Shown here: positions 8,755 to 29,051 of the stretch, piece by piece | Layout: the number at the start of each line of letters is the position of its first letter | Position numbering within the stretch: position 1 is the stretch's first letter | From: Candidatus Micrarchaeota archaeon | Lineage (GTDB): Archaea; Micrarchaeota; Micrarchaeia; Anstonellales; SKW190 | Length of the DNA: 59,459 bases | Assembly (NCBI GenBank): GCA_026414265.1 | Contig: JAOAJI010000001.1 | Coordinates: 4,009-63,467 of the forward strand | Direction: 5' to 3' | The notes under the pieces: generated by a model | Told to the model about the DNA's origin: nothing | What the model saw: only the letters and a program-made list of their open reading frames with translations | Databases searched by the model: none | Program-made: the position numbers and the translations under genes

Positions 8755-8877
8755 GGGCCCGTAGCTCAGCGGTAGAGCGGCAGTCTTATATGACCCGTTC
8801 TGCTGTAGGAGATCAGAAATAACCTTGGAAAGGTCTAAGAGAGCTGTAGGTCGAGGGTTCGAATCCCTCCGGGCCCA
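8755..8877 (+). tRNA. tRNA-Ile with anticodon UAU and a roughly 51-nt intron at 37/38
   Basis: GGGCCCG-TA-GCTC-AGCGGTA-GAGC, anticodon stem GCAGT/GCTGT, loop CT-TAT-A, intron (8791-8841), A, T arm GAGGG-TTCGAAT-CCCTC, CGGGCCC-A. The acceptor and D arm match the archaeal tRNA-Ile pattern. Confidence 0.7.
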
Positions 8878-13573: not shown

Positions 13574-14167
13574 ATGATGAATAGAGCTCTGATTGAGGAA
13601 CTGGAAATCGTGCTTTCACAACCACACTACAATCCTTTGTATGTCATTTTTTTCTTAATAATGTTCGTATTAGGATTCTATGCAACCTTCGCAAATTCAT
13701 TTACAGCTATCACTCTCTTACGTGCACAAAAATATGTTAGCTCAGGTAAAATACCTAAAATATTGGTTATGTCTATTGCTATTGCTTTGATTGTACCAGT
13801 ACTTACTGTATACCTTGGAACCATACTCAATGAACCTTATGCAATCGCCATAGGGTCTGTTTTTTTTGTACTGAGCTTACTAGGAGCATATCTAGGATCA
13901 AAAAGCAGACTTGACCTCTTAAGAGAATTAGGGTTCAGTACTGACGAATCAGCTAAGTATTCCTTTATACTAAACTTCCCTACAGGCACCTGGGAAAATG
14001 AATTAACATACTTCATAAATTATTCAATCAAAGTGATAATTTTCCTGCTGAAGCTCGGCGTAGTCGTTTTCGTTCTTCAGCAAATCTGGCCGTTTATCAA
14101 AAAGTTCATGTTCGCAATTTTAAGTATTGCCCTCTGGTTTTTAATCAAAGTTTACATGATCTACTGA
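13574..14167 (+). CDS. Hypothetical membrane protein
   Basis: Several TM helices and no motif. The ATG at 13574 avoids overlap with the divergent VIT1 gene. Confidence 0.5.
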   Translation: MMNRALIEELEIVLSQPHYNPLYVIFFLIMFVLGFYATFANSFTAITLLRAQKYVSSGKIPKILVMSIAIALIVPVLTVYLGTILNEPYAIAIGSVFFVLSLLGAYLGSKSRLDLLRELGFSTDESAKYSFILNFPTGTWENELTYFINYSIKVIIFLLKLGVVVFVLQQIWPFIKKFMFAILSIALWFLIKVYMIY

Positions 14168-14245
14168 ATCTCCAAATCCCTGAACAACTTGTAACAAATG
14201 GATCAGCAATAACCATTATTAAACACTTGAGTTGATTATTCTTGT

Positions 14246-14530
14246 ATGGAAAAAATGATAAGAAAAATACTGGCACAACCGTTTGAAATAGACGAAAACC
14301 AAAAACAGGCTGTTCTTAACAATTCAAAAGTTATGAAACTACTTGCCTGTGCAGGTGCAGGTAAAACGGAAACTCTGGCAAGAAAGGTCTGCTACTTGAT
14401 CCTTGTGGAAAACCTCGAACCTGAAGAGATTGTTGTGTTTACGTTTAACGTCAGGGCCGCAAAAGAAATAAAAAGAAGGATCTATGACAGAATGGCGTTG
14501 TACGATTTAAAGAAGTGCAGAGTTGGTTAA
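14246..14530 (+). pseudogene. N-terminal fragment (about 85 aa) of a UvrD/PcrA-type superfamily-1 helicase
   Basis: Q-motif-like QKQAV followed by Walker A ACAGAGKTETL and motif Ia VVFTFNVRAAKE. The reading frame then ends, with roughly 600 aa of helicase missing. Confidence 0.7.
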
Positions 14531-14982
14531 AAACTGTTAGCGATAAGTCACAGAAGCAATATATACATGCATTAAGATACTTCTGTGAATTTTGTAGGAA
14601 AACACCAAAACAGTTGATATTGGAAAGGGATAAAGAAATTCGAAATACAGATCCTAATTCGAGAACAAGAATAAGAGACTTGGTTCTTGACTTTAGAAAA
14701 TACTTGGAAAAAGAGGGTTATGCTCCTAAGAGTATAAACTGTTGGGATGGTGCAGTAAGAAGTTTCTTCACAGCAGTACTATGAAGAGCTGGGATGATCA
14801 ATGTAAAGAATTATAGTGAAAGTCAAATTGCAAAGAGAAAGGATTTGGTGCCTACTTTAGAAGAATTAAAGAAAATGTTAGATGTATCAAACTTAGAAGA
14901 AAAATTCAGAATAATCTTTATAGCACAAACTGGAATGAGAGTGTCAGATGCTCTTAAACTCAAAGTTAGAGAATTGAGCTGA
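14515..14982 (+). pseudogene. Decayed tyrosine recombinase/integrase in two pieces (14515-14784 and 14794-14982)
   Basis: SAM-like N-domain (QKQYIHALRYFCEF...YAPKSIN..GAVRSFF), then a stop, then the catalytic domain up to the first Arg box (TGMRVSDALKLKV). The remaining catalytic residues are missing. Confidence 0.7.
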
Positions 14983-15062
14983 TAATTGCATTAGAAAGAA
15001 TTTATCCTGGCTCAGAAGTAAGAAACAAAAAATAAAAAAAGGAGAGAACAATAATTTTTACT

Positions 15063-16715
15063 TTAGTCTAGGTCTGATCCGCTAGGCATTCCTCCCTGGT
15101 CACCGCCAGGCTTAGGAGTTGAGGACTTGCCTTTGGAAGCGATCAAGTCATCGATTCTTAGTATCATTTTGGCTGCTTCGTAAGCACTAGCAACTGCCTG
15201 TTTCTTTACCTTTGTAGGTTCTATGACACCCAAGTGCAGCATGTCATCGACTTTGCCTTCGTGTACATTGACTCCGTAGTGTTTCTTGCCTTCCTTGTGT
15301 TTTGCTCTTAGTTCAACAAGTACGTCTATTGCGTCCATGCCTGCGTTCTCAGCCAACGTCTTAGGTACTGATTCTAAGGCTTCTGCAAAAGCTTGTATCG
15401 CCAATTGCTCTCTACCACCTATTTTCCCTGCGTATTCGTTGAGCTTCAGAGCCACTTCGATTTCCACGCTACCTCCGCCTGTAACGAAGCTGCCTTCCTC
15501 TAATGCGCTTGCGATTGCTCCGATAGCATCCTTCAATGCCCTTTCAGTTTCGTTTACTACGTGCTCTGTTCCGCCTCTTATGAAAATTGTTACGCTCTTA
15601 GGGTCCTTACAGCCAGTCACAAATGTCATTGCTTCTCCAGCGACTTTCTTTTCTTCAACGTGTTCTGCATAACCCAAATCTTTGTCTGACAAGTCGTTTA
15701 AGTTTGATACAAGTCTTGCACCAGTTGCCCTAGCTAACTTGTCCATGTCGCTCTTCTTCACTCTTCTCAGAGCGACTATTCCTTCTTTTGCCAAGAAATG
15801 TTGAGCCAAATCATCTATGCCTTTTTGGCATATAACAACATTGGCCCCACTCTTTTTGACTTTATCAACCATTTCCTTCAACATTTTTTCTTCTTGTTCT
15901 AAGAAAGCACCCAATTGCTCAGGTGAAGTGATTTCAATTTTTGCATCAGTCTCTGTTTTTTCTATTTCTAAAGCACAGTCTAGCAATGCGATCTTGGCGT
16001 TTTTGACTGACTTAGGCATACCAGAATGAACGATCTCTTTGTCTATAACAATACCTTTAATAAGTTGCGTGTCTTCAGTTCTACCACCTTCTTTCTTTTC
16101 AAGTTTTATTAGTTCAGTATCAACGTTTATTTTACCGTTCTTAGTTTCTGCAACAGACCTAACTGCTTCAACAACCATCTTTGCTAATAGATCTTTTGCT
16201 TCTCCTACTCCAACAGTTTTAGAACCCATTGACACCATTGCTAATTTAACCAAAGTGTCTGTATCTTTCACGTCTACTTTGGATGATACATCTGATAATA
16301 TTTGTTGGGCTTTTTTAGCAGCAAGATCATAGCCTTTAATTATTGTGCTTGGATGTATGTTTTGGTCTAATAGGTCACCAGCCTTCTTTAACAGCATACC
16401 TGACAATAGTACTGCAGTTGTTGTACCATCGCCTACTTCTTTATCCTGTGTCTTTGCTATTTCCACCATCAATTTAGCCACAGGATGCTCTACGTGCATT
16501 TCTTCTAAAATCGTTGCTCCGTCGTTCGTTATGACTATGTCACCGAGCTCAGACACTAACATCTTGTCCATACCCTTTGGACCAAGAGTGCTTTTTATGG
16601 CCATTGCAACAGCCAAACCAACGGCTATGTTGGTCCTCTGTGCATCTCTACCCAAGATTCTTGTAGAGCCCTCAGGCAAAATTATATACTGCTGACCTTC
16701 CAAATTTTTAGTCAT
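15063..16715 (-). CDS. ths: Thermosome subunit (group II chaperonin)
   Basis: [36 protein letters not shown] and a C-terminal GGMP tail. The ATG at 16715 has GGGGTGA upstream. Confidence 0.95.
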
Positions 16716-16854
16716 ATAATTCACCCCTTCACTTATTAACATGATTAATAGATAATACCCAACCTAAAGTAATTGATGTAAATCAAAAAACCGTGAATTT
16801 TAGATGCAAATATATTACTAACAAAGAAAGCTTTTTAAAGGTTATATCAACAGT

Positions 16855-17301
16855 TTATCTCTTTTTTTCTTCTTTGGCTTTGAGATAATATTTAAGAAGT
16901 AAGTTTTCCGGATATTTAATTATTTGAATTTGGTCTTCTTCTATTGCTATGTCTCTAGCAGTTCTACCAAGATCGTCTTTAGCATTAATATCAGCTCCAC
17001 TTGTAATCAAGTACAAATACATGTTTAAGTCTCCTTTTCTTGCTGCTTCGTGAAGAAGAGTGGAATTCAAGTTTGTTGGATCTCTAGTATTAACATCATA
17101 ACCTGATTCAAGAATTTTATTCAATAACTCCATATTGGACTCACGAACAGCCTCAAACAATATCTTAACAATTTGCTCTTTTTCAGTACTGACATTCTTA
17201 TTTTCATAGTCGTTCAATGGATATTTGCCCTTGAAGTTTATTCTTTTAAGATTAGGATTGTTTTCTCTCTTTTTGTAGTTTTCCATTTTATCACCAACCA
17301 T
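16855..17301 (-). CDS. Small ankyrin-repeat protein (2-3 repeats)
   Basis: STLLHEAARKGDLNMYLYLITSGADINAKDDLGRTARDIA. Confidence 0.8.
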   Translation of the reverse strand: MVGDKMENYKKRENNPNLKRINFKGKYPLNDYENKNVSTEKEQIVKILFEAVRESNMELLNKILESGYDVNTRDPTNLNSTLLHEAARKGDLNMYLYLITSGADINAKDDLGRTARDIAIEEDQIQIIKYPENLLLKYYLKAKEEKKR

Positions 17302-17327
17302 GAATCAATGAAAAATTATTATAAAGG

Positions 17328-18572
17328 TTACTCATATTTCTTAAGTATTTCAATGACATGTTGATGATTTTTTCTTTCTGCTAATTCTAAAGCAGTTTTG
17401 CCTTGGTTATTTTTATTATTGATATTAGCCCCGTTATTCAAAAGCAGTTCAAGAACTCTAAGATTACCTATGGATGCTGCAACCATTAGAGGAGTGTTTC
17501 CATAAATATTCGGTTTGTCTATCAATGAGCCTCTTTTTAACAGTACCTTTGCAGTTTCAACGTTGTCAGAAAATGCGGCATAATGTAAAGGGATTTCTAG
17601 TTTCTTTGTTTCAGCGTTCACATTAAAGCAATAACTCAGTAAAAGATATACCATTTCAGCGTCAGCGTATTCAGCAGCATAGTGGATAGGTCTCTCTAAA
17701 CTTCTATTTGGTGTATCTACTTTGGCGCCATACTTCAATAATTTCTTTATCAGATTCTTTCTATTGAATTTAGCTGCGTAATGAACAGGAGTGTCGCCTT
17801 CTACGTCTTTCTTAAAGACATTTGCATTGTAAGACATCAACAGATCAATTAAATGCTCGTGGCCTTTAGCAACTGCTAAATGCAAAGGGGTTTTAGAGTT
17901 AATGTTTTCATAATTAACAGGAATGTACTTCAATAACAGTTCAACTGTTCTCAAGTGCCCGTTCAAAGTAGCAAGATGTAATGGCGTGTCTCCGTATTTG
18001 GCTTCTACTAACGGATCTGCATTGTTCATTAATAACACTTCAACTATTTTCGTATGACCATGAAGTGCAGCTAGATGCAATGGCGTTTCCAAATCCATAT
18101 TTTTGGCATTAGCTAAAGAGCTGTTCAAAGAAAGTAGATATTCGACTGTTTGAACGTTTCCAGAAATCGCTGCCAAATGTAAGGGAGTGTTCGATTTATG
18201 ATTTCTTACATTAACTGTAGCGCCTTTTTCAACAAGTAGTTTAACAACTTCGTACCTGCCTTGCCATGCAGCAAAATGTAACGGAGTCTCGTCATATCTG
18301 TTTCGTGCATTGACATTTGCGCCATGTTTTATCAACAACTCAACTGTTTCATAATTACTGTCTAAGGCAGCTATGTGTAACGGATACCTGTCAAACAAGG
18401 TATAAGAATTCACAGATATACCTGAATTAACGAAATTGATGATTCCTTCAACATCGTTATTCCTTATTGCAGATAAAAATTTAGCCTCAGTAAGAGGATC
18501 CAAAGAGCGAAATTTACTCTTATAATCTTGAGATTGAGAACTACGTTGATTTCTGAAGGATTCTTTTCTCAT
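17328..18572 (-). CDS. Ankyrin-repeat protein (about 11 repeats)
   Basis: Recurrent 33-aa units of the form TPLH.AA..G......LL..GA..N, for example TPLHFAAWQGRYEVVKLLVEKGATVN. Confidence 0.9.
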   Translation of the reverse strand: MRKESFRNQRSSQSQDYKSKFRSLDPLTEAKFLSAIRNNDVEGIINFVNSGISVNSYTLFDRYPLHIAALDSNYETVELLIKHGANVNARNRYDETPLHFAAWQGRYEVVKLLVEKGATVNVRNHKSNTPLHLAAISGNVQTVEYLLSLNSSLANAKNMDLETPLHLAALHGHTKIVEVLLMNNADPLVEAKYGDTPLHLATLNGHLRTVELLLKYIPVNYENINSKTPLHLAVAKGHEHLIDLLMSYNANVFKKDVEGDTPVHYAAKFNRKNLIKKLLKYGAKVDTPNRSLERPIHYAAEYADAEMVYLLLSYCFNVNAETKKLEIPLHYAAFSDNVETAKVLLKRGSLIDKPNIYGNTPLMVAASIGNLRVLELLLNNGANINNKNNQGKTALELAERKNHQHVIEILKKYE

Positions 18573-18605
18573 GCAGATTATTTTGTTATAAAAATAATAA
18601 AAATA

Positions 18606-21600
18606 TTACTTTATGTTTGTTGTCTTATCAGAACTTTCTTCCATCATGAAACTTTGTATCTCTTGCAACACAGACAAGAACTCCTTTAGACCATCTTTTG
18701 TGAGTTTTGGTACAGGTACTTTTTTCCCAATCTCATCCATATCCTCTGAAGACAATAATGTTGAGCTAACGATTGGCGCAACAAAGATCACTCCTAAGCG
18801 CGATCCTGTAGATATGCTGCTACTTGTAGCAATCCTGTTCTGAACCGCGTGTTGATGCAAAGCATCAAGCTCATGCAATACATACATTATATCTCCGCCA
18901 GTATTTCCGAAGTCTGTAAAGAAACAAAATATGTAATCAGGTTTAATCGCGTGATGCGAATTATGAGATTTCATACTAGATATGTTTCTTATGTAATCTT
19001 GATTGATCTTATCATTGGTTTCTTCAATAACTTTCCTGCAAGAAGAAACCATAGCTCTTAAATCTGTGCCTTGTCCTATGACAACAAATGGTAGTTCCAA
19101 GAAATATTGTGATCCTAGTTTTTCATACGAGAATGTAGACGGAGTTACCACACTTTCTTGGAACTTATTATCTGATACTGATAAAATTTTCAAAGTCAAG
19201 TCTCTATAAAATTTATGCCCAGCATTCTGCTTAAGTGCTTCTAAATATCCTAATACCATGGCAGATACATGATACAGAGAAAACTCTACAGGTGTAAGCT
19301 CTGAATCACTTGAAATTTGACGATCCATCTGACCCATACTCCCGCTCGTATCTATTGCTAAATACATTACCAACGGCTTCTGGAATAACGATTTACCTTG
19401 ATATTCATCTACAATTACTTTCTTCCTTTTAAACATCGGAACTCTTTGAGTACCTTGAACAAAGTTTTCTGCAGCCTTTCTTACATCAAGATTACCGCGT
19501 AACTTTGAAGGAGTAGATTCTACTAATAATTGACCATACATGTACTGTGAGAAATAGTCACGATACACTTCTACTAACTGTGAATCAACCATAACTGATA
19601 CTTTAGAAGTTACATCTCCTTCAGAGATTTTTTCAGAGGAGGTAGACTTTTCTTGATTTTTAGAGTTAGCATTTTGTTTGTTTTTTTCTTCTTGCTCTTT
19701 ATCCTTTTGATCTTGATTTGAACTTTTTTCGTCCTGCTCTTGTGACTCGCTTTCTTGATCATTAGCACAACCTGAACCTGATGCCAGCACTAAAGCTAAC
19801 TTGTATCTTTTCAAAGCTGCCAACAAACTAACAAGTTTTATTACACTAACTATTGACGTAAAACTATCGCCTATGTTTTGTTGTGCATGAATGTAACTTT
19901 TCACTTCATCTAAGGAATCAAAAATTCGTTCAACGAATCTTTCTGCTGTTTGCTCATCTAGAGAATCTGAAACAATCTTTAGCGAAAATTGACTTCTATA
20001 AAGTTCAGAATCAATTTTAAGATAACCTAGAATAGCGTTCAATAAAACTTGCTGGTCTAAATCAACTAATGATGAAACATAAACTTGATTGTCGTAAGGA
20101 GACGTTTGAAAGTAAAAATGAGTAAAGGATATCAACAAATTGGTAATCAATTCATACATGGATTTTGAAAACTGACTCATGGAAGTTGAAAGCCCAAGTT
20201 TTTGTATGTCTATGTCTCTCTCAAGCAATAGCCTATCAATTCTAGAATCTTCAGTTATATTAAAAAGAACACTAGAAAATGAAATGTCCAACAAAACCAC
20301 TACATTGATTAATGTTGCTTTTTCAGAATTTGGGTTTTCATCTGAAAGGATGGTATACAGCTTCTGCATATGTTCAGGATTGTCTGGATCTATATCAGAA
20401 GGAAGAGCAACTTTTTGCTTAAGATCACTGTATCTTCTTAACAATTCATCCAGAGCTTCACGCCTTAATAACTTTAAGTAATCAACATAACTAATTTGTG
20501 ATTTATTCTCCTCTTTTAGTATCTCTTCAACCCTTTTAACACAAGCAAGTAAAAACTCAGAAGCTGCTTCTATGTGCAGATCTATAGAATAACCTGTACT
20601 ATCCTGAATGTCAAATTTCGTTGAATACATTATGTCCTTTTCAGTCAAATCTCTTACTCTGCTTTTGTAAGTTCCAAATGAGATGTGTGCAAACTCATGA
20701 TATACCAAGTTCATTGCCAACAAATAATTCAGCTCTTTAGAAGGGAATAACATTGTGTATGGGGTCAAGTATACATAAGTGCCGTCAGTGTAGGCATATC
20801 CACCTGATGACGAAAGTCGTATAACGTCATTCTCTAAAATCAACGACTTGGTGTCTTTTTCTAGTGCACTTACTGTACCTTCGTCTAGATTGAATCTTGT
20901 AGCTATTTCAGAAATTGGAATCTTTGCACGAAAAATATCAAAAATTCTGTTTGAACCTGTAGACAAAGGCTTGTAAATAGAAAAACCTTGTTCATCGAGT
21001 TCATAGATATAGCCTAAAATTTGATTGGCTGACATTGACCTAAGAGTCATTCTCTTCAGTAGTTCTGTTGTTGTTGTTGAATCTAAATCGCTGTTTAGAG
21101 AATTCAGTAAATGATCTAGGTCACGTTCTACGAATAAGCTCAATACAGAATTTACAATAGAATTGACAGATCTCAAAGGCAGATTCCTTGATACTAAAGA
21201 TAGGATCAGATTATTAAGATGATAGTAATCTTGAAAAAACTCTGATTTTAATTTGTCAAAATTTTCTTTTATGTTGTCTACGAAGCTCTGGTCATTCCTT
21301 TTTTCTGATAACTCTCTAACTTTAGTATCGAGCTTTTGACAGAAAATCTTGAAAAGCCTTTCTAACTCCTTATTTAAATAGTAATCAAATACTATTCCCT
21401 GCTTACTATCTATCTCAATTAATCCCTTTAATTTTTCATCTAATATTTGAACGCCGTTCAAGACTCCTATTAACAAGTTTTCACAATAAATCAATGATTT
21501 AGGAAGTGATAAAATTAATCTAGTTACGTAATCCTTTTGATTAGAGTCATTGAATGAGTCAAAATCATACTCAAGATAAAACATACCTACTGCTGCTGGC

Positions 21601-22487
21601 TTAAATATACCGCCTTTCGGATAATTTATCACCAGGTAAGGATCTGAAAATAAAGAAACTGAATCAAGCATAAACTTGTTTCCAACAATTTCTACGTATA
21701 AATCGAAATATGACTTCAGTATGTCTACAAATTTCAGTATTCTCTGATCAACATTTCTAAGCACTAATAATTGTTTTAACTCTTCAAATGAAGTTACTTC
21801 TCTTATATCTTGTGAGATTAAATTAGCAAGAACAGTGTTCTGGAATATTGGAGTTTTCAAAGAACGCGTTATTAGATCTACACTCTTTAAGAACAACAAA
21901 TACGATGAATTGCTCTGATGAAAGAAGCTCAAATCGTCTAATAAGTCATTTACTGATCTAAATTGTTTAAATATGTCGTCAATTAAACCTTTACTAGCTA
22001 ATCGAACTATGCTGTCCTTGCTACTACCAGAAAATTCAGTCGATAGCATATAAAATCGAATTCTCTTAGCCATCAATAATGATATTCTGTATAAATTTTG
22101 ATACTCTAATTGTTGAAGATCCTCTGTCTGTGTAAAAATAGTATCATAAGAAACAATTCTCAACTGATTTAGTTTTATCGCCTTAAGTAAATCTCTCTTT
22201 TCTAACTTGATTAGTAATTGGTTGTAAATTTCTAAAGCAAGCTTCTTTTCAAATTCATATATTGATAAACCAGCAAAATTAGCTCTTAATTTAGTATAGA
22301 TCTCTATAACTTGTTGGTTAAGTTTTGTTTTTTCTTCAAATCTTTTTGGTAATTCTTGAGATGAGATGTCAAATAGAAGCTTGACAAAGCTCTTAAAGTT
22401 CACCTGTTCATGAACATTATCGTCTTTTTGATTATCTTGTTTTCTTACTTCTGATTTTTTTCTACTTTTAAACAACCAAAATGACAT
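18606..22487 (-). CDS. 1293-aa protein: long helical N-region, HExxH motif, acidic low-complexity linker, C-terminal vWA/MIDAS domain
   Basis: YHEFAH at aa 596-601 (HEFAH at nt 20685-20699). Acidic Q/E/D/K/S-rich stretch at aa 909-958 (nt 19614-19763). MIDAS DTSGS at aa 1046-1050 (nt 19338-19352), followed by GQGTDL and FFTDFGNTGG. The start lies 1 nt after the AAA gene stop. Confidence 0.7.
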   Translation of the reverse strand: MSFWLFKSRKKSEVRKQDNQKDDNVHEQVNFKSFVKLLFDISSQELPKRFEEKTKLNQQVIEIYTKLRANFAGLSIYEFEKKLALEIYNQLLIKLEKRDLLKAIKLNQLRIVSYDTIFTQTEDLQQLEYQNLYRISLLMAKRIRFYMLSTEFSGSSKDSIVRLASKGLIDDIFKQFRSVNDLLDDLSFFHQSNSSYLLFLKSVDLITRSLKTPIFQNTVLANLISQDIREVTSFEELKQLLVLRNVDQRILKFVDILKSYFDLYVEIVGNKFMLDSVSLFSDPYLVINYPKGGIFKPAAVGMFYLEYDFDSFNDSNQKDYVTRLILSLPKSLIYCENLLIGVLNGVQILDEKLKGLIEIDSKQGIVFDYYLNKELERLFKIFCQKLDTKVRELSEKRNDQSFVDNIKENFDKLKSEFFQDYYHLNNLILSLVSRNLPLRSVNSIVNSVLSLFVERDLDHLLNSLNSDLDSTTTTELLKRMTLRSMSANQILGYIYELDEQGFSIYKPLSTGSNRIFDIFRAKIPISEIATRFNLDEGTVSALEKDTKSLILENDVIRLSSSGGYAYTDGTYVYLTPYTMLFPSKELNYLLAMNLVYHEFAHISFGTYKSRVRDLTEKDIMYSTKFDIQDSTGYSIDLHIEAASEFLLACVKRVEEILKEENKSQISYVDYLKLLRREALDELLRRYSDLKQKVALPSDIDPDNPEHMQKLYTILSDENPNSEKATLINVVVLLDISFSSVLFNITEDSRIDRLLLERDIDIQKLGLSTSMSQFSKSMYELITNLLISFTHFYFQTSPYDNQVYVSSLVDLDQQVLLNAILGYLKIDSELYRSQFSLKIVSDSLDEQTAERFVERIFDSLDEVKSYIHAQQNIGDSFTSIVSVIKLVSLLAALKRYKLALVLASGSGCANDQESESQEQDEKSSNQDQKDKEQEEKNKQNANSKNQEKSTSSEKISEGDVTSKVSVMVDSQLVEVYRDYFSQYMYGQLLVESTPSKLRGNLDVRKAAENFVQGTQRVPMFKRKKVIVDEYQGKSLFQKPLVMYLAIDTSGSMGQMDRQISSDSELTPVEFSLYHVSAMVLGYLEALKQNAGHKFYRDLTLKILSVSDNKFQESVVTPSTFSYEKLGSQYFLELPFVVIGQGTDLRAMVSSCRKVIEETNDKINQDYIRNISSMKSHNSHHAIKPDYIFCFFTDFGNTGGDIMYVLHELDALHQHAVQNRIATSSSISTGSRLGVIFVAPIVSSTLLSSEDMDEIGKKVPVPKLTKDGLKEFLSVLQEIQSFMMEESSDKTTNIK

Positions 22488-22488
22488 T

Positions 22489-25368
22489 TCATCGACCCTC
22501 AGATTCTGAATTTTCTAGTCTACTTTTTAGGCCTTGAGCAAATTCAGAAACTAATTCATTTGATTCTATCTCATTTTGTGAATACTTTTGAAACTTGTCA
22601 ACCATATATTGACTATTTAATTCCTCATAAATTGGCTTCCAGAATCTACTCCTTGAACCTGATGTCAGAAAGTAAAGACACGAAACTGTCGTACTTCCTA
22701 TAGTAATGTATATCTGATTAAGTTCTCTCAACATATCTACAGTTAAGTCGTAAGCTTTGTTTTGATCATGAACATACTTCATTATTTGGTTAAATAAAAA
22801 CGCAAAATCATCCAAATATAGCTTTATGAATTGATGGCTTTCATTTTTTGCATCTTGCAATTGGAATATTCCACTAGGCAGTACAGGGGTCTGGAAATCT
22901 CTATAGAATAGGTATGTCGATGCCCTGTTCAAAAAGTTGTCAAGAAAGTTCGTAGTCAAATTCATTGTAGCGACTATTCTGACATTCTTCAAATCAAAAA
23001 CTTCATCTCCTATCGTTATCTGCTCCTTTGTTAATAAAGCATTCAGCTGCTGCGTGTATTCTTGAGTCATGTCTATCTCGTCAATATGAATTATGCATAC
23101 TGTCTCTGGTGAGTCTCTAGCAGCCCTCAAAGCTTTTACAAGCTCAGTTTCCTCCAAGCTTCGACTTTTATCTCCAGATTTAACTTTAACACCCAGATCT
23201 ATAATCGATAATTCCCTTGCATTCACATAAAAGTATTGCACTTCTTTCCTTTCTCTACTAAGCTCTGTAGCTAAAATGTCTTTAGCTAATCTAACCATCG
23301 TGCTCTTTCCTTCCTGAGGCGCGCCAGTCAAAAGAGTGAATCTCTGACCTGTTATCAAACCTCCAACTATACTACACAATGTCAAAAAGTGATGCTCTGA
23401 ATAAACAAAGCTCTGAGTCGTAATGCCATTTTTATCTTTCATGTCAAAAATGTAAAATTGATTTTCTGAAGGAACATCATTTGAAGCTTCAAGCCTTTGA
23501 TTTGCTCTTTCTTTATTCTTTAGCTCAGTCAGAATACTAGCAATCAATTTATAAGACCTGTCGCTCTCACTTAATACAGTCATCGGACCTGTTGGTAACA
23601 TTGAAGTAATTATTATAGCACTCAATAAATGTGCCTCTAACTTTGAACTCAAAGACTCATATAATTCTTCCTTCTTACTCTCTTGTGATATATCTGATCT
23701 AATAAGAGATATTTCTCTTTTTATTCCATAATAAGTCGAACCTAAAGAATAACATGAAACAGAAATTGACGAATTCTTATCAGACATGTAATCGATTACA
23801 GAATTTTTTAAAAATACCAATGAACCTAAATAAGTCATCAAAGCGTTTTTTATAACCCTGATGCTTGGACGTCTCACATTTGTATTTGTGATTTGTTCGT
23901 ACATTGCAATGATCTTAGCAACAAATTTGTTCATTTTATCTTTTATTGTTTCGTCATTGATTCCTGCTTGTTCAATTAATTTCTCAACATATGCCTTTAG
24001 AAACTCTGTAAGTTTTTCATGTTGTGGATAGCCAAAAACAACTTCATATAACCTCTCACTGGTAGATTCAGGTATGAAATTACCAGAAGAATTGTACATA
24101 TTCCTTATGTTTCCTGTTGCAACTACAAACAACCTTCGCGGTACAGGTATTTCAATTTCTATTCTCTTTCCTTTCACTTCAGGATTGGTTGAATTATCCA
24201 AAATTTGTTCAATGGAATCTACCAATGCTTTGAGTTTTTCATATAACATTTCGAATTTCTTTTCATCTAATTGGCCAAAATATCTCGATAAATTTCTTTT
24301 CTCCAAAATCAATCTAATGTTCTCTTTCAGTCTTTTGAGTTCTTCTATATCTTCATGACTTATCTGGTCGATATTGAAACCCAACCTAATAGAATTTGGA
24401 GTAGCTTCTGACGTTGTCGTTGAACAGATCTGGTCAAAAAAACTATTCAAGTTTTTGGCGCTTCTTTCCTCTTCGCCTTTTCTGTGAGGCAACTCACTCA
24501 ATTCGTCCAATAAAAGAATAACAGATTTAGGCGAATCACTCAAATAAGTGGCAGTTAATAACGTTAATAAATTGTGCCTTTCTTTCACATCAATTCCCAA
24601 ATTGAAAATGTATTCTCTGCTAAATATAAAGTCAGTTGGGGAATTTAATGAAGGCAAAACAACTATGTAAGTATCAACAATACATGCTTGTTTATCCAAC
24701 AAAAAATCATGTAAATGTGAAACTATTTGTTTGAACTTTTCTTCATTTTCCACCATGAAACTACGCTTTAATATAGACGCTATCGTCTCAACTAATTTAG
24801 CCTTCTCATCATCTGTGTAAACGTTATCAGCTATATTCTTTAAGATAGGAAAAATCGTGTTAGAACTAAATAATTGAGAATATTCAGGAGTGTTAATCAA
24901 GCTTGAAATCGCATCATAATCCTTAGTCTCGCAAGCCCTACAAACGCTATGCAAAAAATTATGCATGCGATTTAAATCTTTCATTGCTATATCAACAAAA
25001 CTATCCAATTCTTTTACCATCTCTCTAAACTCATGAATCGCGAAGTGCGTCTTACCAGTACCAGGGTGACCAACAAAATACATAACGTTTGTACACGGAT
25101 CCCCTAAAATATAATCTAAAAATCTCTTGAAAACTTTTAAGTAAATCTCTGGGCTCAAAACCCTATAGGAGATATATGTTGATGAACCTTCTACCTTGGT
25201 AAACAAATCCAATAACTGAGTATATCTTTTATGCGTAATTGCCTCTTCAGCAAGAGTAGAAACACTACCGAATGGCCTAATTCTTTCTGCATGTCCAACT
25301 TCAACTCCTTGATGACGATTTATTTTTAAAATTCTCATTCTCACCAACCTCTCAATAGATGAATTCAT
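22489..25368 (-). CDS. 959-aa tandem AAA+ ATPase of the AAA_5/MoxR-like type
   Basis: Module 1: Walker A GHPGTGKT (nt 25048-25071), Walker B VILLLDE (24502-24522), VVATGN. Module 2: Walker A GAPQEGKS (23302-23325), Walker B IIHIDE (23077-23094), VATMN. Confidence 0.75.
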   Translation of the reverse strand: MNSSIERLVRMRILKINRHQGVEVGHAERIRPFGSVSTLAEEAITHKRYTQLLDLFTKVEGSSTYISYRVLSPEIYLKVFKRFLDYILGDPCTNVMYFVGHPGTGKTHFAIHEFREMVKELDSFVDIAMKDLNRMHNFLHSVCRACETKDYDAISSLINTPEYSQLFSSNTIFPILKNIADNVYTDDEKAKLVETIASILKRSFMVENEEKFKQIVSHLHDFLLDKQACIVDTYIVVLPSLNSPTDFIFSREYIFNLGIDVKERHNLLTLLTATYLSDSPKSVILLLDELSELPHRKGEEERSAKNLNSFFDQICSTTTSEATPNSIRLGFNIDQISHEDIEELKRLKENIRLILEKRNLSRYFGQLDEKKFEMLYEKLKALVDSIEQILDNSTNPEVKGKRIEIEIPVPRRLFVVATGNIRNMYNSSGNFIPESTSERLYEVVFGYPQHEKLTEFLKAYVEKLIEQAGINDETIKDKMNKFVAKIIAMYEQITNTNVRRPSIRVIKNALMTYLGSLVFLKNSVIDYMSDKNSSISVSCYSLGSTYYGIKREISLIRSDISQESKKEELYESLSSKLEAHLLSAIIITSMLPTGPMTVLSESDRSYKLIASILTELKNKERANQRLEASNDVPSENQFYIFDMKDKNGITTQSFVYSEHHFLTLCSIVGGLITGQRFTLLTGAPQEGKSTMVRLAKDILATELSRERKEVQYFYVNARELSIIDLGVKVKSGDKSRSLEETELVKALRAARDSPETVCIIHIDEIDMTQEYTQQLNALLTKEQITIGDEVFDLKNVRIVATMNLTTNFLDNFLNRASTYLFYRDFQTPVLPSGIFQLQDAKNESHQFIKLYLDDFAFLFNQIMKYVHDQNKAYDLTVDMLRELNQIYITIGSTTVSCLYFLTSGSRSRFWKPIYEELNSQYMVDKFQKYSQNEIESNELVSEFAQGLKSRLENSESEGR

Positions 25369-26611
25369 TGATTAACAATCTAGTCTCACGATAATCATTA
25401 TTATCATTAGGCATAGGGCCTTGCGATTCACCTCTCGCAAGTTTGTTTAGCTCAACCCTTAAATGAAAGTATTCTAATAATTTGGTTGAGATTATTTGCA
25501 CGTCATTTAAGGACAATTCAATACTTGAAAATCTATCTAAAGAATTTTGCATCAAATTAAAGACATGATAGATTTCGCTTCCGTTCGAAAACATCTGATA
25601 CGATGTCAAATAAGTAAGAAATTCCATTAGGGAATAATGTGAAGGGTCAAATATGAAAAAATCATCTCTGTCTGTTTGACTAGTATCACTGTTCTCTAGG
25701 TCATCAGAATGAATAATAAATTGAGAAAAAACTTTTTCTAAATATGCAGTAGGTTTTATTGATATTAATAAAGGCTCTAACAACAAGTATGGAATACTAT
25801 AGATGTTGAGAACCTCCATAGAAGCAAGAATGATAAAGAAATCAACAGATGGAAATCTTGCAGTTCTTAATTCCATCAATAATGAATTCTTCATTTCTTC
25901 TGAAAGGTCGATCCTTCGTGATATTATGTGCTCAACAAATGCTGCATATCTGTGGTTAAATTCACTCAAAGAACTCAAAAAATCATTTATTGCTCTGTGA
26001 TTAGTAGATTCTAATAATTGCATCAACTTCTCTTGATCAATAAACAAGCTAGAATAAAGTTGAGCAAGGGTATGCATTTCTGAAAGAGTTGCTTCTATTT
26101 CTGTAAAATGTCCACTCGTGATGAGTCTGCTTTGTATAAGTTGAAATACAACAGGTAATTTTGAAATGTTTTCAGATGGTCTTAATTTGGACATTTGAAT
26201 AGAATAAGATAATGGAACATATCTTGTCCTTTCCAAATATTCTCTCTCTTCTACACTTAACAGCAATGGCCTATAATATACGTAATCAAGTATTCCTTTC
26301 AGTAAAATTGATGACAACAAAACTTTAGTAGATTGAAAACCTTTGTCTTCAGCCATCAATCCAGTTGGAGCAGAGCCATTAAAATATCGTGCCCTATTAA
26401 TTACAAAGGAAGTAATAATCTGTCTCAGATATTGTTCGAGCAAAAAAATATCCCTATCTATATCCAACTGACTTCTACTGAATGAACCTTGAGATATTAA
26501 AAAAAACCGTCTATAGCTCTTTACGAACCTTTTGTATTGCTCGTATTTACTTTTATAGAATTCTTTCTCTTGCTGAGCCATAAAACCACTGTTTTGTATA
26601 ACATATAACAC
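25352..26611 (-). CDS. Hypothetical all-helical protein, first gene of the AAA/vWA cassette
   Basis: 419 aa with no motif recognised. Its 3' end overlaps the AAA gene start by 17 nt, suggesting translational coupling. Confidence 0.5.
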   Translation of the reverse strand: MLYVIQNSGFMAQQEKEFYKSKYEQYKRFVKSYRRFFLISQGSFSRSQLDIDRDIFLLEQYLRQIITSFVINRARYFNGSAPTGLMAEDKGFQSTKVLLSSILLKGILDYVYYRPLLLSVEEREYLERTRYVPLSYSIQMSKLRPSENISKLPVVFQLIQSRLITSGHFTEIEATLSEMHTLAQLYSSLFIDQEKLMQLLESTNHRAINDFLSSLSEFNHRYAAFVEHIISRRIDLSEEMKNSLLMELRTARFPSVDFFIILASMEVLNIYSIPYLLLEPLLISIKPTAYLEKVFSQFIIHSDDLENSDTSQTDRDDFFIFDPSHYSLMEFLTYLTSYQMFSNGSEIYHVFNLMQNSLDRFSSIELSLNDVQIISTKLLEYFHLRVELNKLARGESQGPMPNDNNDYRETRLLINEFIY

Positions 26612-26634
26612 AAAAAGACTTATAAACCATGTTT

Positions 26635-27908: not shown

Positions 27909-29051
27909 CTAAATTAAAAAACCCCATGTGTTTTCCATATTGCCTATGCCGTTCTTCAAATTGATAGTTTTGTCTTTGGTTTTAATTACCAACTCTTTCA
28001 TTATTGCTGGGTATTCATTATAGTACAGATGAGACGTGATGGGCAAATCAAATATTGATTTAGTGAAATGCCAACAAGCGTTTGAATACGATTCACAGTA
28101 ACCCTTTACCTCTAAATCAAGGTCTTTGCCATATAAAATATGCTTGTAATTTTGATGATCAACTCTAATCGGATCTACACTCAAGTCCCTGCAATAATAA
28201 ATCTTGTCTTGGTTGTAATCGTAATAAGTTAAATCATGAGTGATTTTGAACAAAGGATTACCTAAACTTATGCTATTGCTAATATTACCTTTCAACATTT
28301 CCTTACCTAAAAAAGATACCATGTAAGTCACATAACTTTTATCAGGGAAATGATAGATACCCCAATACCATTGAGGTATTGGTGCAGCTACAAGAATTCT
28401 TTGGAAATATGCAGTTCCAACAAAATCATATGACTCTCTTGAGGATTCATTACTATAACTACCTTTGAGCTCTAAATGCTCAATCCTCAAACCCTCTACT
28501 TCAAAAGGTCCAAAAAATTTGTCAGAGTAATTTGGGCCTACATATTTGCTTTTGTTTTTTTGCTCTGCGATGAATTCAAACTTCTCATCTTTTTTATCAA
28601 TTTCTATAACATATTTACCTTCTTTTTCATAGAATTTAGTGAATGCCTGTTTACCATTTGATATCAACTTCCTTTCTTTGGGATTAACTCTGAATTTAAG
28701 GGTTTCTAAAATGTAGTCTTCGTGCATCTTGTTATGTTGATTATCGTAATACCAACTCGCATGTGCTCCGTTCAAAACGAATTCGTTATTATTTTCATCA
28801 AAATCTATAGTTTCTTTCATGTACATTTTGCAATCATTACACTGAATAAAATCGTCCCTTTTTGTTGACCACAGGATCATCAACTGCCTTGTTTTAAACG
28901 TTTTTTCAGTAGATTCATCGTGAATGAAAAATAACCAGAACCACCAGAACCAAGCACCTTTTTGAAGATGCAATTTAGGTTTCCAGATATAAGAATAAAG
29001 CTGTTTCCTCTTTTCTTCGCTGTCGTGAGAGCCAAAAATCAAGTCTGACAT
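27909..29051 (-). CDS. Hypothetical protein; tentatively AttH/CrtC/tocopherol-cyclase-like
   Basis: Trp-rich N-terminal GAWFWWFWLFFIHD and C-terminal GIGNMENTWGF, which loosely recall the WW and E..WG motifs of that superfamily. Lies between lipid genes. The functional call is weak. Confidence 0.3.
   Translation of the reverse strand: MSDLIFGSHDSEEKRKQLYSYIWKPKLHLQKGAWFWWFWLFFIHDESTEKTFKTRQLMILWSTKRDDFIQCNDCKMYMKETIDFDENNNEFVLNGAHASWYYDNQHNKMHEDYILETLKFRVNPKERKLISNGKQAFTKFYEKEGKYVIEIDKKDEKFEFIAEQKNKSKYVGPNYSDKFFGPFEVEGLRIEHLELKGSYSNESSRESYDFVGTAYFQRILVAAPIPQWYWGIYHFPDKSYVTYMVSFLGKEMLKGNISNSISLGNPLFKITHDLTYYDYNQDKIYYCRDLSVDPIRVDHQNYKHILYGKDLDLEVKGYCESYSNACWHFTKSIFDLPITSHLYYNEYPAIMKELVIKTKDKTINLKNGIGNMENTWGFLI

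Follow-up and report, generated by a model that had tools for sequence, protein, structure and literature searches.

Between positions 16855 and 26611 of a 59,459-nt stretch of contig JAOAJI010000001.1 from a Candidatus Micrarchaeota archaeon (in the following 'the window', meaning the whole analysed stretch), five tightly packed genes on the minus strand form a cassette whose two largest products are an ATPase with two AAA+ modules and a giant partner protein ending in a von Willebrand factor A (vWA) domain with a complete MIDAS (metal-ion-dependent adhesion site). We regard it as an evenly balanced matter whether the cassette is a lineage-specific AAA+/vWA-MIDAS machine for protein remodelling, operating on the principle of NorQ/NorD, CbbQ/CbbO, CobS/CobT and RavA/ViaA. 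Pairs of this kind are widespread, and few of their clients are known, namely Rubisco, nitric oxide (NO) reductase, chelatase substrates and pre-ribosomes. The cassette adds a distinct branch, characterized by a tandem ATPase, an HExxH-bearing partner of 1105-1330 aa and recurrent ankyrin or HEAT neighbours as plausible built-in clients or adaptors, and is a tractable system for the question of how MIDAS partners select their targets. It comprises three or more protein families for which Pfam, NCBIfam and PADLOC have no model, is confined to a DPANN lineage, and is a rare case of a conserved, lineage-specific system of several genes in Micrarchaeota, organisms dependent on contact with a host for their biology.

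The genes encode, in the order of transcription, a helical protein (25352-26611, 419 aa, GTG start), the tandem AAA+ ATPase (22489-25368, 959 aa), the giant partner (18606-22487, 1293 aa), a larger ankyrin protein (17328-18572, 414 aa) and a smaller one (16855-17301, 148 aa). Open reading frames, lengths and junctions were exactly those of an earlier, sequence-only reading of this DNA: the first two genes overlap by 17 nt (25352-25368), 1 nt (22488) separates the ATPase gene from that of the giant, and gaps of 33 and 26 nt follow. A gene caller placed the start of the ATPase 10 codons downstream (949 aa), which would abolish the 17-nt overlap.

The giant partner and the tandem ATPase

Relatives of the giant were only accessible by an exhaustive HMMER search, as word-indexed searches had found one relative of the ATPase and none of the giant. 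Among 1.84 billion representatives, 11 giant relatives were detected, eight of them 1105-1330 aa long and three shorter (401-603 aa, one labelled partial). Those with a name were all annotated as 'hypothetical protein' and originated from Candidatus Anstonellales (Micrarchaeota, DPANN) or from generically labelled archaeal metagenome-assembled genomes (MAGs). Pfam, NCBIfam and PADLOC held no family model for the giant, nor for the upstream protein and a ~100-aa protein treated below, which agrees with the earlier view that the combination is undescribed. Members of the giant family share one order of parts: a helical, variable N-terminal region of 350-520 aa, an HExxH domain, a charged linker, the vWA/MIDAS domain and a conserved C-terminal tail.

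The vWA domain (18633-19382, minus strand) was recognized by motifs, a structure model and Foldseek. Its MIDAS motifs are DTSGS (1046-1050), GQGTDL (1139-1144) and FFTDFG (1189-1194), of which D1046, S1048, S1050, T1141 and D1192 are invariant in all 12 sequences. A model of residues 520-1293, built from 12 sequences, displays beta-alpha-beta alternation in the C-terminal domain with a predicted local distance difference test (pLDDT) of 70-90. Only three of its Foldseek matches in the PDB exceeded a probability of 0.5, which was 0.99 for a chain of the collagen VI C-terminal region, 0.84 for an Integrator INTS10/13/14 chain and 0.80 for a CaV1.2 channel chain; we take these three to contain vWA domains. 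In BFVD the best matches of the model were phage proteins: one annotated as VWFA (E 3e-7), one as 'cobalt chelatase CobT subunit' (E 1e-5), a vWA protein of a Vibrio phage and, as the sole BFVD match so named, a cyanophage 'metallopeptidase' (E 5e-3). Their alignments, of 700-950 columns, extend over the HExxH part as well as the vWA part. Taken together, the invariant residues, the model and the matches in PDB and BFVD support the vWA/MIDAS domain which the sequence-only reading had placed at this end of the protein. Sequence profiles gave fainter traces: Pfam VWA_2 in one of the 12 family members (E 4e-4), weak ViaA matches in two of them, and a weak match of the family profile to the pilus protein SpaC at its MIDAS strand (E 0.07). 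As modelled, the C-terminal ~770 residues have the architecture of a CobT/NorD-like partner, and the matches to phage 'CobT' and 'VWFA' proteins are in line with the previously proposed logic of CobS/CobT and NorQ/NorD, in which an AAA+ ATPase is paired with a vWA protein.

The embedded HExxH motif, H598-E-F-A-H602 (HEFAH; 20682-20696, minus strand), is invariant in nine of nine full-length relatives, where it stands in a family context of TDGxxIYxxP followed by HExxH(I)xxG(S/T)F. Together with the five MIDAS residues it is retained across 9-12 homologues at ~20% identity, so that the motifs of the giant, like those of the ATPase, are present as originally read and are not due to chance. About 145 residues further on lies N743-I-T-E-D747-S-R-I750-D751 (20235-20261, minus strand), corresponding to the family motif NIxEDYRID with N, D, I and D invariant in nine of nine relatives; we infer from its conservation a candidate helix for the third metal ligand. 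In the model the HExxH motif lies within a helix after three short strands, a topology compatible with zincins.

Between this domain and the vWA domain runs a low-complexity linker (residues ~902-960; 19608-19784, minus strand), recognized by its composition and modelled with a pLDDT below 30. It had been described as acidic. A charged low-complexity linker is indeed found in the same place in all relatives, where it is rich in D, E, K, G and S; its acidity is only moderate in the window giant (rich in Ser, Glu, Gln, Lys and Asn, D+E 15 versus K+R 8), and in the relatives it is not always net acidic. The giant ends in T-N-I-K (18609-18620, minus strand), a family motif of the form [ST]-N-[IV]-K with N1291 invariant, for which a role in docking to the ATPase is proposed after the C-terminus of NorD, which is functionally important in NorD as well as in CbbO (PMC13036017).

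The 959-aa protein is, judged by its motifs, a two-module AAA+ ATPase of uncertain clade; Walker A, Walker B, a polar sensor-1 residue and an arginine finger, the features of the AAA+ superfamily, are present in each module. Module 1 (residues ~90-520; 23809-25101, minus strand), delimited by alignment and a weak Pfam AAA/AAA_22 match on the P-loop, possesses Walker A GHPGTGKT (100-107), Walker B LLLDELSEL (LLLDE at 285-289), sensor-1 ATGN (417-420), R439 and R504, and is enlarged by two long helical or coiled-coil insertions. Module 2 (residues ~655-835; 22864-23406, minus strand), delimited by Pfam and by profile comparison with the PDB, possesses Walker A GAPQEGKS (682-689), Walker B IHIDEID (HIDEID at 761-766), sensor-1 ATMN (800-803) and R815. 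In an alignment with five homologues (22-34% identity) both motif sets are complete and invariant, in the family forms GxPGTGKT, DELSEL, TGN, R439 and R504 for module 1 and GxxQEGK[ST], DEID, T(M/S)N and R815 for module 2, and this alignment together with Pfam bears out the presence of two AAA modules in one chain.

The earlier interpretation of ATGN and ATMN as a signature of the AAA_5/MoxR clade was not confirmed. These motifs are not diagnostic of AAA_5, since the Pfam families AAA and AAA_22 score at least equally and profiles against the PDB return TRIP13 and Cdc48. On residues 674-816 AAA obtained 37 bits (cut-off 21), AAA_22 42 bits and AAA_5 33 bits (cut-off 22), and across six family members AAA and AAA_22 matched all six with better E-values, AAA_5 four, and AAA_3 and AAA_lid none; the N-terminal half of the ATPase gave a Pfam match at the level of the P-loop only. 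Against all PDB sequences the family profile retrieved Cdc48/p97, TRIP13 and NSF (best E 6e-6 for Cdc48 and 4e-4 for TRIP13), and the profile of module 2 retrieved TRIP13 (E 7e-4). The profile of module 1 minus its P-loop returned no relative in the PDB, only noise, and single-protein searches of PDB sequences gave no match; ATPase peptide patterns, scanned against collections of genomes and metagenomes, yielded nothing useful. Cdc48/p97 and TRIP13, of the classical AAA clade, are the best profile matches among solved structures, and Cdc48 is likewise a tandem AAA protein. However, the matches do not extend beyond the P-loop and the stretch from Walker B to the arginine, the ATPase has no N-domain, and vWA partners are not characteristic of the Cdc48 and TRIP13 families. 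A check of the module 2 model for a helix-2 insert and a pre-sensor-1 hairpin found short strands at 730-735 and 783-792, where pLDDT is 40-75.

Conservation of the cassette and its companion genes

Ten lineages were compared (the window, L001/L013, L003/L015, L004/5, L006, L007/8, L009, L010, L011 and L014), with one cassette copy per contig. In all ten, ATPase and giant genes are adjacent and both are homologous over their full length; the tandem ATPases that precede the giant in the relatives measure 846-947 aa and align nearly completely with that of the window (BLASTP E 1e-23 to 1e-140). The order of all five genes, which had been put forward for comparison among related genomes, recurs exactly in the nearest relative only. 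The unit that is conserved has fewer genes than these five and is less fixed in composition, its core consisting of an upstream helical gene, the ATPase, an optional ~100-aa gene and the giant. The nearest relative is represented by L001, L013 (overlapping with L001 at 98% nucleotide identity) and L012, which give the order upstream gene, ATPase, giant, ANK(420), an additional ANK(147), ANK(139) and thermosome, ANK denoting ankyrin genes.

The thermosome gene, situated just downstream of the cassette in the window (15063-16742), also reveals the pace at which the cassette diverges. Compared with its counterpart in the nearest relative (L012:3746-5398) it is 95% identical in protein and ~79% in DNA, whereas identity amounts to 33% in the ATPase, 34% in the giant, and 43% and 55% in the ankyrin proteins of 414 and 148 aa, respectively. 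Hence the cassette diverges far faster than its flank while its position is kept. Along the comparison of the window with L012, similarity collapses at the cassette boundary, inside the last ankyrin gene. Just beyond the thermosome gene of the nearest relative a CARF/Card1-like gene was noticed (L012:5437-6222; Pfam HFX_2341_N and CARF_Card1), for which tblastn found no counterpart in the window. In another lineage (L014:5789-8636) the giant gene directly precedes an operon for the ribosomal proteins S17, L14, L24-like, S4e, L5, S14 and S8, a neighbourhood that is probably coincidental.

Both small proteins downstream of the giant are ankyrin proteins, as had been read: the 414-aa protein contains ~11 ankyrin repeats (Pfam Ank_2, E 1e-86) and the 148-aa protein matches Ank_4 (E 2e-12). 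Genes for solenoid proteins directly abut the cassette in six of the ten lineages: the window, L012/L013 and L010 have ankyrin genes, and L003/L015, L004 and L006 have paralogues of a HEAT-like family, in up to six copies. No further genes of either repeat type were detected by tblastn within the 59 kb of the window or within the ~10-kb flanks of the other loci. With six lineages showing such neighbours, four showing none and the type of repeat being exchangeable, the association is recurrent and not obligatory. Two loci have solenoid arrays of their own character. In L006, six paralogous HEAT-like genes (325-755 aa) surround the cassette (L006:2471-5761 and 13998-22066), and their proteins possess a conserved N-terminal region in common with the HEAT-like proteins of L003 and L004. 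In L010, a putative archaeal contig, three tandem ankyrin genes, followed by a gene for an 876-aa protein with matches to sigma-70 regions 2 and 4 (L010:218-5052), are found ~1.5 kb upstream of the cassette; the arrangement recalls MzaA, the ankyrin-sigma factor of a described anti-phage system.

The all-helical leading protein comprises 419 aa if translated from GTG or, more likely, 409 aa from the ATG at 26581. It gave no Pfam match at E 0.1 and none in NCBIfam or PADLOC, and neither BLASTP nor hidden Markov models (HMMs) nor shuffled Smith-Waterman comparisons detected any similarity to the proteins at the same position in the relatives, the nearest included. Its tentative identification as the VMAP component of a ternary system was dropped, as there was no match of any kind. 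A helical protein of 168-330 aa precedes the ATPase at every locus where the upstream region is present, and in five relatives these proteins constitute one family, with only very weak matches to VMAP-M2 (E 0.18) and EAD11 (E 0.067). Between ATPase and giant a gene of 86-126 aa is present in seven lineages and absent in the window, L011 and L001; no ubiquitin-like (UBL) or other domain was recognized in the small associated proteins. Several small helical proteins of the cassettes end in a hydrophobic residue and tyrosine (FIY, IIY, RIY, TVY; window 25355-25363, L001:410-430, L003:1541-1558, L007:5232-5246), and three of the ~100-aa proteins end in aromatic-x-G (IYTG, YYMG, FYFTG). Such ends might be docking tails, to judge by their sequence, and are not consistent across all loci.

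Proposed mode of action and competing explanations

Cryo-electron microscopy of NorQD revealed a finger of the vWA domain inside the ATPase pore and the C-terminus of NorD on the post-sensor-1 loop, with ATP-driven rotation stretching the NorD linker, and acidic client residues were proposed to be bound by the MIDAS (PMC13036017). Operons of MoxR, vWA and peptidase genes were predicted to encode degradation systems, with recruitment by vWA, unwinding by the ATPase and cutting by the peptidase (PMC3495828). For the present cassette the list of parts and its conservation were observed directly, and analogy to NorQD, CbbQO and Rea1 suggests the following steps. The ATPase would assemble into a ring, either a trimer with six modules or a double-ring hexamer, and would hold the vWA domain of the giant via a pore-inserted loop or hairpin and the [ST]-N-[IV]-K tail. 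The MIDAS metal could then capture an acidic side chain of the client, and ATP hydrolysis would turn or pull the vWA domain against the giant's N-terminal part, so that the linker is stretched and the client remodelled. The HExxH/EDxRID site might act as a zincin-like peptidase cutting the held client or, alternatively, serve as a metal site. The adjacent ankyrin and HEAT proteins may be clients, or exchangeable adaptors choosing the client, and are the most economical candidates for these roles.

Fast divergence and the turnover of accessory genes suggest that the targets lie at the host-symbiont or virus-host interface and not in core metabolism, and the rapid evolution of the cassette, next to a thermosome gene that hardly changes, is indicative of a function in interaction or conflict. 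A more specific version, in which a cytoplasmic machine confined to Micrarchaeota uses its two-module ATPase to drive a MIDAS metalloprotease, programmed by ankyrin or HEAT adaptors, that cleaves host or viral proteins in an evolutionary arms race, appears rather unlikely when all its parts are taken together.

With NorQ/NorD and CbbQ/CbbO the cassette has in common the succession of ATPase gene and partner gene, and the giant resembles NorD and CbbO in its helical N-terminal part, linker, C-terminal vWA domain with a DxSxS-T-D MIDAS and conserved extreme C-terminus. In contrast to NorQ and CbbQ, the ATPase carries two modules in one chain of 860-960 aa and long helical insertions and is not assignable to the MoxR clade; the giant is twice as long as NorD or CbbO and contains an invariant HExxH; and, unlike in NorQD and CbbQO, no target enzyme gene is located nearby and solenoid proteins are associated. 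Proteins of the COG3864/DUF2201 type, in which an HExxH domain and a vWA-like domain occur together beside MoxR genes, may be the nearest described architecture, of which Pfam reported none here.

Several results weigh against a remodelling machine of this kind. The ATPase, by its sequence, cannot be placed in the MoxR/AAA_5 clade, and profile searches of PDB sequences with it returned no MoxR-class protein. Its AlphaFold model, derived from a two-sequence alignment, is poor (pLDDT 44), for which reason the Foldseek matches obtained with it, led by dynein and RNF213 and also including ClpA/B/C at a TM-score of ~0.2, are suggestive only. Pfam found no vWA domain in the window giant and, applied to its sub-regions, no CobT_C, DUF2201 or peptidase family either. 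The HExxH region matches no peptidase family by sequence, a PDB profile search with it gave only noise, and the model of this domain has a pLDDT of only 50-80. Finally, an adjacent solenoid gene is absent in four of the ten lineages (L007, L009, L011, L014).

Among the competing explanations an NTP-dependent conflict system, directed against viruses or hosts, has to be considered, in which the solenoid proteins sense, the AAA+/vWA core licenses and the HExxH peptidase is the effector. Such an arrangement would parallel the vWA-MoxR-VMAP ternary systems (Kaur et al., 2020, PMC7159879), which diversify fast and combine an AAA+/vWA core and a third helical protein with accessory or effector genes that vary, and it accords with the very fast divergence of the cassette relative to the thermosome, its patchy and narrow distribution, the exchange of ankyrin for HEAT genes, the facultative ~100-aa gene and the non-homologous upstream genes, and also with the very weak VMAP-M2 and EAD11 matches of the upstream proteins. 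The described systems, which occur mostly in multicellular bacteria (PMC7159879) and not in DPANN archaea as here, differ in that no VMAP-C domain was found in the cassette, the ATPase is tandem and the vWA domain stands at the C-terminus with no effector domains following. Moreover, PADLOC reported nothing specific in the cassette, only generic ankyrin matches and mad8 on ATPase module 1 (E 4e-5), there is a single copy per contig, and in two related genomes the cassette keeps the same position by housekeeping genes, with no integrase or mobile-element genes nearby. We consider a conflict system of this sort unlikely. The adjacency data speak to a further possibility, namely that ATPase and giant alone are the functional unit, with the ankyrin and 419-aa genes as mere same-strand neighbours. 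It fits the four lineages without adjacent solenoid genes, the 419-aa protein without a detectable relative, and the L010 locus, where some ankyrin genes lie on the opposite strand or beside the sigma-70-like gene. Since solenoid genes touch the cassette in the majority of lineages and occur nowhere else in the flanks, the ankyrin positions are conserved in the nearest relative, and a helical gene stands before the ATPase wherever the upstream region is present, we judge this explanation improbable.

Two further explanations draw on the nature of the vWA partner. A dedicated metallochaperone or chelatase resembling CobST or NorQD, inserting metal into one enzyme with the HExxH holding the metal, could be proposed from the match of the giant model to the phage 'CobT subunit', from a weak Pfam CobT match and from the ability of NorQD and CbbQO pairs to mature enzymes. 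Structurally, the last 774 residues of the giant are matched best by the CobS/CobT group, phage-encoded CobT-like and 'metallopeptidase-vWA' proteins included (BFVD E 3e-7 to 5e-3), over the helical/HExxH part as well as the vWA domain, and in both cases a charged stretch stands before the vWA domain. The weak Pfam CobT match, however, covers the low-complexity linker only (residues 908-952), and apart from the linker no Pfam or NCBIfam match assigns the giant to the CobT, NorD or CbbO families. From the phage CobT-like proteins it differs by an extra N-terminal region of ~520 aa and by the absence of similarity at the sequence level, tblastn against phages giving no match. Neither CobN nor NO reductase (NOR), Rubisco or another candidate target enzyme is encoded in any of the ten neighbourhoods, and rapid divergence is unexpected for a maturation factor of a conserved enzyme, which leaves a metallochaperone with a small share of the probability. 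Midasin/Rea1 unites six AAA modules in one chain, and its MIDAS domain binds assembly factors with a UBL domain. An archaeal counterpart or precursor of it, split over two genes and stripping assembly factors from ribosomal particles, would agree with the same order of AAA modules, helical region, charged low-complexity stretch and C-terminal MIDAS, mirrored in the order of the ATPase and giant genes, with dynein and RNF213 as best matches of the weak ATPase model and with the ribosomal-protein operon downstream of the L014 cassette. Yet only two modules per chain instead of six are present, no UBL-domain partner was recognized, the cassette evolves fast, and apart from L014 the neighbourhoods are unrelated to ribosome genes. 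The family is moreover restricted to Micrarchaeota-type MAGs and does not occur in lineages near eukaryotes. As midasin was also absent among the 50 listed Foldseek matches of ATPase and giant each, with no specific match by sequence either, the midasin logic suggested by the sequence-only reading finds no specific link, and such a counterpart is highly improbable.

Candidate transcription signals and surroundings in the window

On the minus strand, a TATA-box-like tttataa (26620-26626) is located 39-45 nt before the ATG at 26581 and may be the promoter of the cassette, which suggests that the first gene really begins at this ATG (M11; 409 aa) and has a promoter of its own. Downstream of the last ankyrin gene and before the thermosome gene, a run of six T (16785-16790, minus strand) is a possible archaeal terminator. 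Both signals, as read from the letters of the DNA, suggest that the five genes are one transcription unit. Spacing alone does not define the boundary of the cassette, because the gene for a geranylgeranyl reductase continues on the same strand only 23 nt upstream. Further upstream, and separated from the reductase gene by 20 nt, follows on the same strand a gene for a 380-aa protein (27909-29051), which had no Pfam match and was not found near the cassette in the relatives.

A mobile defence island was rejected in view of the housekeeping flanks and of the conserved chromosomal position in two related genomes. Likewise, a membrane or secreted apparatus was rejected: the cassette proteins contain no conserved hydrophobic segment, and the system is therefore probably cytoplasmic. 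The window as a whole is archaeal and AT-rich (GC ~33%). Two tRNA genes in it (1507-1630 and 8755-8877; 123-124 nt) apparently contain introns, which is consistent with an archaeal genome.

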